Shown in pieces: positions 9,378-12,399 of a DNA stretch of 64,000 bases. The position numbers and the translations under genes are program-made. The notes under the pieces are model-generated. The model saw only the letters and a list, made by a program, of their open reading frames with translations, was not told the origin of the DNA and ran no database searches. The stretch comes from Escherichia phage phiWec179. The stretch lies in the sequence record LC739533.1. One strand, given 5' to 3'. The first letter of the stretch is position 1. Every line of letters starts with the position of its first letter.

Positions 9378-9710
9378 TTAGCTCCACAAGTTATGAAAAT
9401 ATTCAGCAAACAGGCAACGACCTTCGATTTTATCCGTTTTGGTCATAACGGATTCAGGTTTAAAACCTTCAATCATTTGATCAATAATGGATAACCACTC
9501 CACTGTAGCTTCCCGCTCCTGCTCTTCTGTTAGTTTACGGTAATCTGACACATATTTAGCCCAAATCTTAGATGGGATAAGGATATCCCCTCGTTCCACA
9601 ATACGTGCCTTGAACGCGTACAGTCCAGCACAGATAATCGCGGAGAACGTATCATCCAGGTCTTGCAGATCTTCTACGCCAAATTGTAATTCATCATGGA
9701 TAATTTTCAT
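9378..9710 (-). CDS. Hypothetical protein (110 aa)
   Basis: Intact ORF; 4-nt overlap with the upstream gene. Confidence 0.6.
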   Translation of the reverse strand: MKIIHDELQFGVEDLQDLDDTFSAIICAGLYAFKARIVERGDILIPSKIWAKYVSDYRKLTEEQEREATVEWLSIIDQMIEGFKPESVMTKTDKIEGRCLFAEYFHNLWS

Positions 9711-9994
9711 TTTGTTTCTCCCCGCTCTGCGTCTAATTTCAATAAGAAGGCTGCATACTCTTCCGAACCTTTGTGTAAGAACATACGATAAGAACTCACC
9801 AGTTTCTTCGTTGTTGTATAACGCTCCATTCCGCCGACAACCCCTGTACCGAGAGTGTAGAGAACAACACCTTCAACCCCAACATGGGTTACGACTTCAA
9901 CCATGTCCGTGTTATCCCAGTGATATTTAGGGGATACAATAAGATCGCCAACTGCTAATTTGATGTTTGCCGCTTCGTCTTGTGAATAGTACAT
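9707..9994 (-). CDS. Hypothetical protein (95 aa)
   Basis: First gene of the leftward operon, downstream of the divergent promoter. Confidence 0.6.
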   Translation of the reverse strand: MYYSQDEAANIKLAVGDLIVSPKYHWDNTDMVEVVTHVGVEGVVLYTLGTGVVGGMERYTTTKKLVSSYRMFLHKGSEEYAAFLLKLDAERGETK

Positions 9995-10128: not shown

Positions 10129-11082
10129 ATGAAATACGAAGATTTTAAACAAATAGTTAAAGACGATGTGGTATTTGAGAACTTACAGGAAGGTTGTGAA
10201 GTCTTAGGTTGGACAGAAAGAGATAGAAACTTTGCAAAAATATACGTAATACGTTGTAGTGTTTGTGCCAAAGACCCCGAAATGTATGGAGATGGTCTTT
10301 TTACAGCTACAAAAGGGCGTTTAGTGAAAGGTCAGAAATGTTGCGCGTGCGCTGTATCCTTTAAATACAGTCAAAACCAACACCTAATTCTGCTAAACAG
10401 GCATTTAAGTGTCGCAGGGTACAGCATAGTTTCTATTGGTGCTTGGGAGTGTTCTAAGACGAGAATAGAGTTTAGTTGTGAGAATGGACACACGAAGAAC
10501 AGAACCCTGGCTCAAGCAAAGGTAGTAGAACCTTGTAAACAGTGTCTTGAAGAAGGCTGTACAAAACACAAACAAGATGAGGCAGAGGCAAAAATTATGA
10601 AGATAATAGAAGATAAATGTTTACCTTATGTATTTGTAGGGTGGGATACTTCTTACAAGAATGTAACTTCAAAATTCAACCTCATCTGTTCGGATCACGG
10701 TTTAAAAACAATAAGATACGCTTGTTTCCTAAATGGTCATTTTTGTAACGAGTGTTCTGGTAGAAATTGCCTAAGTCTTTATTTATTAGGAGTTTATGAT
10801 AGAGACTTGTTGGTAGGTTTAAAATTTGGCATCTCTCAGAGTCCAGTAAGAAGGGTTCAACAGTTAAATAAAAGGAACTTATTTAAATGTAAAATACTAC
10901 AGATTTGGACTTTTACATCACATGATCAAGCTGTACGGATGGAAACATTATTAAAGAACACATTGCGAACTGGAATATTTACTAAAAGAGAGATGAAAGA
11001 TGGTCATACAGAAACCACAGAAGTTACTAATTTAGAAACCATAATGGACCTTATGACCTCATCTCATGGATTGGTTAGTTAA
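10129..11082 (+). CDS. T5orf172-type (GIY-YIG superfamily) domain protein with N-terminal Cys-rich repeats; homing-endonuclease-like
   Basis: C-terminus LKFGISQSPVRRVQQLN...AVRMETLLKN...KDGHTET; CxxC / C..HG repeats. Paralog of 5545..6561. Confidence 0.6.
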   Translation: MKYEDFKQIVKDDVVFENLQEGCEVLGWTERDRNFAKIYVIRCSVCAKDPEMYGDGLFTATKGRLVKGQKCCACAVSFKYSQNQHLILLNRHLSVAGYSIVSIGAWECSKTRIEFSCENGHTKNRTLAQAKVVEPCKQCLEEGCTKHKQDEAEAKIMKIIEDKCLPYVFVGWDTSYKNVTSKFNLICSDHGLKTIRYACFLNGHFCNECSGRNCLSLYLLGVYDRDLLVGLKFGISQSPVRRVQQLNKRNLFKCKILQIWTFTSHDQAVRMETLLKNTLRTGIFTKREMKDGHTETTEVTNLETIMDLMTSSHGLVS

Positions 11083-11377
11083 CAAAAACCTTAACATTTC
11101 CGATGTTCTTGCTGACTTCTTGTGAGAACATTGAAAGTACCTTGTCAAGCAGTTTTACTAATTCATTTGTAATTTGTTCCTCTGAACGAGAAGAAGTAAG
11201 TACCTTACTCTCACCAACGATGTGCATCACCTTGATAGGAGCATTCAGGATAACATTGTGCTTTTCATCTTCTTCGAAAGATGCTAACCACTTCTCATTA
11301 TTCCCGTGCAAAGCCACGATAACACCAAAACCGTTAATAGTTTGTGAAATGTTCTTAGTTGCTAATGTAATGTTCAT
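11075..11377 (-). CDS. Hypothetical protein (100 aa), antisense-oriented within the rightward block
   Basis: Own promoter and AGAGAGG RBS; 3' end overlaps the 3' end of 10129..11082 by 8 nt. Confidence 0.55.
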   Translation of the reverse strand: MNITLATKNISQTINGFGVIVALHGNNEKWLASFEEDEKHNVILNAPIKVMHIVGESKVLTSSRSEEQITNELVKLLDKVLSMFSQEVSKNIGNVKVFVN

Positions 11378-11433: not shown

Positions 11434-11494
11434 GTGTTGACAAGCTTTTTGGTTCTGTTATGATTAGCTCATACTAAATGAGAGGAGAAAACAA

Positions 11495-11932
11495 ATGCAA
11501 AACATCAAACTGACTTGGACCGAAGCTAAAGAAGCAATGAAGGAAGGTAGACGTGTTAAACACGAGTATTTCTGTGGTGGGGAATGGTTTGAGATGCAAT
11601 ATGGTGTTATTCTGGACGAACATGGTTATAATATGACTGATTGGTATCGTGACGAAGCTTGGCAGGATGATGGTTGGTCTGTGGTTGAGAAAGAAGGTAA
11701 TGAGGAAGAAGGACTGTTGTCTAATGTAGAGCGCGAAATGCGGGAAACAAAGGTGCCCGAACTGGACTACCATCACCTGGAACTTCTTGTGGCAGCATCT
11801 TTCGCTACTGGAGATACAATGTGGCAAACTCCGGTGTCCCGTGTCGATAACCAAAATAAACCGTCTGCCCGTAATCACAAGCTTTACAAAGGTAAAGGTC
11901 ATAACAAACTGAAGAAAGGAAAGAAGAAATGA
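11495..11932 (+). CDS. DUF2829-like protein (the family that includes anti-Thoeris Tad2) with Lys-rich C-terminal extension
   Basis: N-terminus LTWTEAKEAMKEGRRVKHEYF and later WQDDGWSVV resemble the recalled DUF2829 pattern; family call is from memory. Confidence 0.4.
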   Translation: MQNIKLTWTEAKEAMKEGRRVKHEYFCGGEWFEMQYGVILDEHGYNMTDWYRDEAWQDDGWSVVEKEGNEEEGLLSNVEREMRETKVPELDYHHLELLVAASFATGDTMWQTPVSRVDNQNKPSARNHKLYKGKGHNKLKKGKKK

Positions 11933-12075: not shown

Positions 12076-12399
12076 ATGTCCAACAATCTGTTTAGCGTGT
12101 CAATCGCACCGCGTGTTAATATTCGCTGTCAGTTTGTTACCTTGCCAGGCGTGACACACATTACTTTAGAGTATGATCCTCGTTCACGAGAGAACCCAAT
12201 TACAGGCAAGATTGATTCAGCCTACGGCGACTTCCTAATGGATCACCAAGCGATCTTATGTTGTGTGCAACGCTTACAGGCAGGGTCTTTATACATCTTT
12301 AAGAAGTCTGTGTTCCAAGAGATTGCTCAAGCAGTTGAAAGCGGTATGGAGACTCTTAACGCTATGATTGAAGCAGCCAACAAGAAGGAGGTTTTATGA
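12076..12399 (+). CDS. Hypothetical protein (107 aa)
   Basis: Tightly coupled operon member with GAGGAGG RBS. Confidence 0.6.
   Translation: MSNNLFSVSIAPRVNIRCQFVTLPGVTHITLEYDPRSRENPITGKIDSAYGDFLMDHQAILCCVQRLQAGSLYIFKKSVFQEIAQAVESGMETLNAMIEAANKKEVL

Follow-up and report, generated by a model that had tools for sequence, protein, structure and literature searches.

A predicted minimal Tad2-fold domain with altered pocket residues and a genus-specific tail module in a candidate immune-evasion protein of Escherichia phage phiWec179

Background

The Tad2 proteins of phages are sponges that sequester the nucleotide signals of the Thoeris, CBASS (cyclic oligonucleotide-based antiphage signalling system) and Pycsar (pyrimidine cyclase system for antiphage resistance) defences, and the specificities gathered in this family extend over 3'-cyclic ADP-ribose (3'cADPR), His-ADPR, N7-cADPR, cyclic dinucleotides and the cyclic uridine and cytidine monophosphates (cUMP/cCMP). 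Few known viral inhibitors of nucleotide-based immunity in bacteria are as versatile as the Tad2-family sponges. The GWNGK/S-x-x-D signature is present in every characterised member, and the Tad2-fold proteins of established mechanism are all homo-oligomeric small-molecule sponges. Here, we present a computational analysis of a gene of Escherichia phage phiWec179 (sequence record LC739533.1), located at positions 11495..11932 (+ strand) of a stretch of 64,000 nucleotides (the whole DNA analysed, hereafter the window) and coding for 145 amino acids followed by a stop codon. Reading the sequence alone, an earlier note had assigned its product to the DUF2829-like proteins, which include Tad2, and had viewed it as a possible sponge for Thoeris-type signals.

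In the published structures, the pocket of Tad2 for glycocyclic ADP-ribose (gcADPR) is built by the beta1-beta2 loop, the beta3-beta4 loop, strand beta4 and helix alpha3. The main ligand contacts in the Tad2 of phage SPO1 are W25, N26, W73 and D79, and S76, together with W73 and D79, contacts the ligand or its waters; the corresponding contacts of HgmTad2 are W21/N22 and S90/T92/D93. The Tad2 homotetramer consists of two V-shaped dimers, with alpha2/beta2 and alpha1 interfaces, helix alpha2 being carried by an insertion between beta2 and beta3 that forms part of the V-shaped dimer interface. In HgmTad2, SptTad2 and MoTad2, this beta2-beta3 segment also forms a second pocket, for cyclic dinucleotides or cUMP.

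Results

The N-terminal domain of the phiWec179 protein (residues 5-65; 11507..11689, + strand) very probably has the Tad2 fold and a remote homology to Tad2, just outside the Pfam boundary of the family. In an AlphaFold2 model of residues 1-68 (predicted local distance difference test, pLDDT, 90.8; predicted template modelling score 0.76), the domain displays the elements of the Tad2 core (alpha1, a beta-sheet of antiparallel strands, a short alpha3 and a last strand at the C-terminus); predicted are a helix at residues 8-16, a short one at 55-58 and strands at 20-23, 32-35, 38-41 and 61-64. Ranks 1-19 of the Foldseek matches in the PDB were all occupied by SPO1 Tad2 or ModTad2, with probabilities mostly of 0.82-1.00 (0.69 at rank 19) and target-normalised template modelling scores of 0.47-0.61, and the structural likeness to Tad2 supposed in the earlier note is thus borne out. 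The Tad2 proteins of SPO1 (8SME/8SMF), HgmTad2/AcrIIA7 (8KBI), ModTad2 (9EIB) and SptTad2 (8WJD) have the same core fold as the modelled domain, sharing with it an N-terminal amphipathic helix 'xxEAxxAMKxGxxV', an antiparallel beta-sheet, alpha3 as a short helix and a '(D/G)W-x-I/V' strand as the last element. Among the structural neighbours in BFVD, the nearest were members of the protein's own family; several neighbours, of 60-63 amino acids or more, bore the name DUF2829 domain-containing or Thoeris anti-defense 2-like.

Profile comparisons were performed with a family profile of 105 sequences and 12 bona fide Tad2 sequences listed in the supplement of Yirmiya et al. (bioRxiv 10.1101/2023.05.01.538930). 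Alignment of the two by hhalign reached a probability of 92-94% and a score of 40.7, for a mean of 9.9 (standard deviation 2.0, maximum 17) over 100 column-shuffled controls and a score of 10.9 for the reversed alignment, which argues for profile-level homology, confidently aligned over 22-23 columns only. Alignments of the family with single short Tad2 sequences were co-linear and weak (48% for Tad2_79, 5% for Tad2_80). When the family profile was searched against the PDB, the best sequence match was SptTad2, and the N-terminal helix and the C-terminal W...DW segment lined up in the same order in both. PF11195, the DUF2829 profile of Pfam, was the top weak match of 17 of the 60 relatives scanned singly (E<=1), the runner-up family accounting for 2 of the 60; these sub-threshold matches begin at profile position 1, and the best relative scored 21.8 bits (E 2.9e-4), below the curated gathering threshold of 25 bits. 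The protein itself had no match in NCBIfam, nor in Pfam at E<=10. The Tad2 identity proposed in the earlier note therefore stands for the fold, by profiles and Foldseek, and does not extend to membership in PF11195.

Residue equivalences with Tad2 were read from a greedy profile alignment, of low confidence past beta1, whose layout agrees with the predicted secondary structure. The residues invariant in 12 of 12 Tad2 sequences are F7, A10, K15, G17, R22, G24, W25, N26, G27, W73, S76, D79, D84 and W85. Two of them, A10 and G17, are retained as A11 (98% of the family) and G18 (99%). R22 is replaced by H23 (H in 94%), W25 by F26 (F in 97%) and N26 by C27 (T/S/C in 75%); the position of G27 is deleted, and K28 corresponds to G28 in a loop that is acidic across the family (S/D/P, D/E, E), where E30 reaches 98%. 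Further along, W73 aligns with Y51 (W/F/Y in 95%), S76 is deleted, D79 aligns with A55 (acidic in ~48%), D84 with G60 (G in 73%, D in 18%) and W85 with W61 (W in 90%). Where Tad2 has its R-x-G-W-N-G-K loop, the protein reads H23-E-Y-F26-C27-G-G-E30 (family consensus H-x-Y-F-[TSC]-x-[DE]-E), keeping only the aromatic residue, and the W-x-x-S-x-x-D-x-L-A-E-D-W motif of Tad2 is likewise absent apart from aromatic 51 and W61, positioned by the low-confidence part of the alignment. These equivalences therefore indicate that the hydrophobic/aromatic skeleton has been kept, with aromatics at the W25, W73 and W85 positions as in Tad2, and that the polar ligand-binding signature has been lost.

The family has invariant residues of its own, namely H23, F26, E30, E42, G44, an aromatic at 50/51 and W61, of which E42 and G44 are new invariants in the beta3-beta4 loop. 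In addition, this family of minimal domains (hereafter mini-Tad2) lacks ~24 of the Tad2 residues that separate beta2 from beta3, and the Tad2 tetramer cannot be assumed for it because the alpha2 segment is absent. In the portions consulted of the supplements of Yirmiya 2023 and Hadary 2025, two large Tad2 studies, the signature peptides of the family do not occur, and none of the Tad2 proteins in the portion covered of Table S2 of Hadary et al. shows its signature. Like Tad2, the phiWec179 protein is a small and apparently early phage accessory protein, and in both cases the domain sometimes occurs in fusion with others. Unlike Tad2, it lies below the Pfam threshold, has no beta2-beta3 insertion, has its GWNGK loop, S76 and D79 replaced, shows H23, E30, E42 and G44 as new invariants and bears a C-terminal extension with a polybasic tail.

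Homologues were recovered as 21 full-length proteins (E-values 1e-90 to 1e-34), as protein-level matches in 462 phage genome records and as 61 cluster representatives, all representatives of a 1.8-billion-protein library being scanned. Most relatives are 60-70 amino acids long and match only residues ~5-66. In PHROGs, the whole protein (residues 1-145) belongs to PHROG 22208 (E 1.8e-79), and residues 4-65 belong to phrog_3474, a family of 64 amino acids (profile positions 2-63 of 64; E 2.7e-30). Both memberships are direct; the two families are without functional annotation, and the link to Tad2 is unrecorded in PHROGs. The extent of the relatives and this split between PHROGs therefore describe a normally stand-alone N-terminal domain followed by an extension of 80 residues, in agreement with the earlier note, which had found the protein longer than typical (SPO1 Tad2 has 89 amino acids) and had suggested a variant with an added domain. 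A search with the family profile among 5.8 billion proteins gave 98 matches; since none of the 98 carried a precomputed Pfam domain, this search offers no bridge from the family to PF11195.

The homologues are found in enterobacterial phages that include T4-like and T5-like phages, phages of 88-90 kilobases (kb; SUSP2, Mordin, KPS64), phages of ~146-149 kb and a group of ~48 kb. For instance, the T5-like phage poul149 encodes a homologue of 65 amino acids (L011:4001-4198; MF431738.1 7432-7629) inside the annotated left terminal repeat, near A2, a position that in T5 corresponds to the pre-early, first-step-transfer region; this homologue scores 18.8 bits against PF11195, below threshold. One protein of 175 amino acids (P0077) consists of two tandem copies of the mini-Tad2 domain. 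TadIV-1 (T4 Vs.3), the N7-cADPR sponge of T-even phages, is likewise a small early protein of enterobacterial myoviruses, with no Pfam domain and with long and short forms. Kinship with TadIV-1 was rejected, the hhalign probability being 0.06%.

Beyond the domain, residues 66-128 (11690..11878, + strand) comprise an acidic linker and two helices (72-84 and 92-104) predicted at low confidence (pLDDT ~50-76), the second of which starts around a conserved D(Y/F)xxLE motif (residues 91-96). A tblastn search with residues 70-126 returned 70 phage records only, 68 of them with Phapecoctavirus-type E. coli-group names or Phapecoctavirus/Dompiswa labels and 2 from Klebsiella phages; judged by these matches, the linker/helix segment is specific to Phapecoctavirus. 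Matches of this region to haemagglutinin HA2 (E>0.1), the only ones from a single-sequence phmmer search of the PDB, were rejected as coiled-coil or compositional noise.

The protein ends in a polybasic tail, KLYKGKGHNKLKKGKKK (residues 129-145; 11879..11929, + strand), whose conservation appears in alignment with distant homologues and whose family motif is K[LI]xKG[KR]GHN[KR][LF]xK[GRK]KKK. When distant metagenomic homologues are included in the alignment, the linker diverges freely, and the D(Y/F)xxLE motif and the polybasic tail persist. The family phrog_27594 matches residues 117-145, and a back-translated tail pattern matched 8 viral contigs. The tail is carried by Tad2-like proteins (L003, L004), by a 102-amino-acid protein with an unrelated N-terminus that matches phrog_27594 (L005:1708-1737(-), L006:2234-2263, L009 and L010) and by proteins of ~186 amino acids with a D(F/Y)xxLE-like motif (L007:2617-3177(-) and L008:8531-8560). 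Present on three kinds of protein, it therefore behaves as a portable short module. The form K[LI]xKG[KR]GHNK[LF]KK[GK]KKK recurs, in phages of ~146-153 kb, on proteins whose N-terminal parts are unrelated, and a relative of 221 amino acids (P0031) has a long insert ahead of the same basic tail. Neither residues 70-145 nor the tail-bearing proteins had a Pfam match at E<=1, and the C-terminal module, searched as a profile, matched only 12 proteins, none with an annotated domain.

The fusions of Tad2 with Acb4 or with Sequestin (PF21825) likewise combine, within a single polypeptide, a Tad2-type domain and another module that is partly helical. Unlike these sponge fusions, the protein has a C-terminal part that is mostly low-confidence or disordered, with a lysine-rich tail instead of a folded sponge domain. 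Sequestin (PF21825) and Acb4 were considered as identities of this part and rejected, since neither the complete sequence (E<=10) nor residues 70-145 alone (E<=1) matched PF21825, PF13876 or any other Pfam family; PF21825 was also not among the matches of the 60 relatives.

The open reading frame (ORF) 11495..11932 and the elements quoted in the earlier note, LTWTEAKEAMKEGRRVKHEYF, WQDDGWSVV and the lysine-rich end, are present exactly as described there. Its 145-amino-acid product corresponds to BDU12442.1, a hypothetical protein in GenBank from phiWec181, a Phapecoctavirus of the Stephanstirmvirinae that is 99.9% identical to the window by megablast over the tested 4 kb. On sequence grounds, this ORF is a real gene and no chance reading frame, because of its 21 full-length homologues, 462 phage records and 61 cluster representatives. 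An antisense ORF of 142 amino acids (11474-11902, - strand) overlaps the gene almost wholly, has no independent support and is probably spurious, a side effect of coding-strand composition.

Immediately 5' of the gene, within a divergent intergenic region, lies a sigma-70-type promoter-like site (11437..11464, + strand) made of TTGACA, a 16-nucleotide spacer and an extended -10 element TGtTATGAT (11 of 12 matches, with TG ahead of the -10), which is the top-scoring predicted promoter of this type among the 5 kb scanned. A strong ribosome-binding site, GAGAGGAG (11480..11487, + strand), is read directly 7 nucleotides ahead of the ATG, and the gene heads a rightward run of small genes reaching a helicase gene. 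Since a near-consensus promoter, a ribosome-binding site and the first position in this rightward block come together, an early timing can reasonably be proposed, and the gene is probably expressed early from a host-type promoter.

Several features of the surroundings were recorded. A 317-amino-acid ORF (window 10129-11082, + strand) contains two stretches with a CapR homology domain (PF21817, 1.5e-20) and a weak MUG113/GIY-YIG-like match at its C-terminus, and it matches PHROG 681 'endonuclease' (5.9e-59). Among Phapecoctavirus genomes, the alignment spans 10129-11082 only in phiWec181 and phiWec186, the others aligning only from ~11135 onward; the segment looks like a homing-endonuclease insertion beside the divergent promoter region. 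Small neighbouring genes encode members of three phage families that were defined recently and have no known function, namely Phage_tudor (PF24144; window 9707-9994, - strand), DUF7325 (PF24011; window 11075-11377, - strand) and DUF7247 (PF23905; window 12076-12399, + strand). In the databases, genomes labelled Pseudomonas phage PsgM04F, Campylobacter phage A110a and an Acinetobacter phage (records including OR584014.1 and MG065689.1) show 84-94% DNA identity or close protein kinship to Phapecoctavirus-like phages of E. coli. The hosts named in these records look doubtful, with contamination or mis-assignment as possible causes.

Discussion

We favour, tentatively, the reading of the phiWec179 protein as an early anti-defence sponge with a re-built pocket. 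A two-part accessory protein would be made early from a host-type promoter, its N-terminal domain would oligomerise, and this domain would most likely trap a small signal of host immunity where Tad2 has its gcADPR pocket. The mini-Tad2 family keeps the elements that build that pocket (the beta1-beta2 loop, the beta3-beta4 loop, beta4 and alpha3), and the family-invariant residues (H23, F26, E30, E42, G44, aromatic 50/51 and W61) sit in these elements, from which we infer the trapping of an immune signal. The sponge reading is favoured because the known mechanisms of Tad2-fold proteins are those of sponges, because the family is plastic in its specificity and because the conserved residues lie in pocket loops, and further because of the apparent early expression, the location of the T5-like homologue and the existence of tandem two-domain versions, the two-copy protein P0077 fitting self-association. 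The extension, with its D[YF]xxLE helix and KGKGHNKL-KKGKKK tail, would act as a portable accessory module. Speculatively, the tail might anchor the domain on nucleic acid, a ribosome, a membrane or another anionic partner, or else help assembly. As the invariant residues are chemically unlike N26/K28/S76/D79 of Tad2, the ligand or the binding mode probably differs from those of canonical 3'cADPR-binding Tad2, and a Thoeris signal in particular, as the earlier note had in mind, is a doubtful ligand.

Several observations weigh against a sponge function. Residues invariant in Tad2, some of which contact phosphates or hydroxyls of the ligand (N26, G27, K28, S76, D79), are replaced or deleted, and the alpha2-bearing insertion of the V-shaped dimer interface is absent. 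The residue equivalences themselves have low confidence past beta1, the confident profile-profile alignment is limited to 22-23 columns within helix alpha1 and beta1, and no relative reaches the 25-bit threshold of PF11195, to which the query has no match even at E<=10. In addition, Tad2_80, an insertion-less protein of 73 amino acids that Hadary et al. tested, seems to inhibit none of the systems tried, as far as a yes/no table whose columns bear no labels allows it to be read. The neighbouring genes, here and in T4-like and T5-like phages, belong to no known anti-defence family, and a polybasic tail has no precedent among known sponges.

The loss of the canonical polar ligand residues and of the alpha2 dimer element also favours a reading in which the Tad2 fold has been re-used, with an acidic, aromatic-rich mini-domain binding a host or phage protein or a nucleic acid rather than a signal, and with the polybasic tail delivering this domain to DNA, RNA, ribosomes or membrane for host takeover or for the inhibition of a non-signalling defence. 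We regard such a re-use as a serious possibility, although not as our preferred one. It accords with the family's own invariant set (H23, E30, E42, G44), which is not found in Tad2, with the strong conservation of a basic tail common to unrelated N-terminal domains and with the apparent inactivity of the short, insertion-less Tad2_80 against every signalling system in that same table. One relative, P0055, points the same way, as it combines the mini-Tad2 domain with a C-terminal SEC-C zinc-binding motif (PF02810, 2.8e-8) in place of the tail. A further precedent would be AcrIIA7, a Tad2-fold protein first reported as an anti-CRISPR whose mechanism is not known, but this activity was reportedly not reproducible, and the Tad2-fold proteins of established mechanism have all proved to be small-molecule sponges. 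Moreover, the conserved residues gather in what would be the Tad2 ligand-pocket loops and delineate no obviously new surface, and most family members are tail-less, which argues that the core function is independent of the tail.

That the protein simply works as SPO1 Tad2 does, a homotetramer binding 1''-3' gcADPR and inhibiting type I Thoeris, appears improbable. The core fold is the same, the stacking aromatics are kept at the equivalents of W25, W73 and W85, and expression is apparently early; however, the GWNGK loop, S76 and D79 are absent, although all 12 Tad2 sequences, some of them differing in specificity, have them; PF11195 is not matched, and the dimer interface lacks its alpha2/insertion part. 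An accidental or convergent resemblance, in which a generic small alpha+beta fold would imitate Tad2 with no common ancestry, could draw on the size of the domain (only ~60 residues), on weak Foldseek E-values (0.06), on the 12-23% sequence identity to Tad2 structures and on a profile alignment that is confident over so few columns. With the homology supported as described above, we consider this explanation very improbable.

A bolder form of the sponge reading would make mini-Tad2 (~62 amino acids) a new sponge clade in which a re-built pocket (H23, F26, E30, E42, aromatic 50/51) and a different oligomer capture either an immune signal for which no such handling by canonical Tad2 is known or an unknown enterobacterial signal, the KGKGHNKL tail being a portable targeting peptide that concentrates early effectors on an anionic structure. 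In this full form, we find the proposal unlikely.

Conclusions

The phiWec179 protein is best described as a minimal member of the Tad2-fold family, by prediction, with altered pocket residues and a genus-specific tail module, and as a candidate immune-evasion protein. This result ties a large unannotated family of ~62 amino acids to the Tad2 fold, in which the core is kept and the pocket residues are re-written, and this mini-Tad2 family spans several much-used groups of enterobacterial phages, including the T5-like pre-early region. The polybasic tail common to different proteins provides a separate lead on how early phage proteins may be targeted in the cell. If the mini-Tad2 proteins are not sponges, the Tad2 fold would have been re-used for another early function; if they are, the sequence definition of Tad2 would be widened, possibly with new ligand specificities, in E. 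coli phages that are easily testable.
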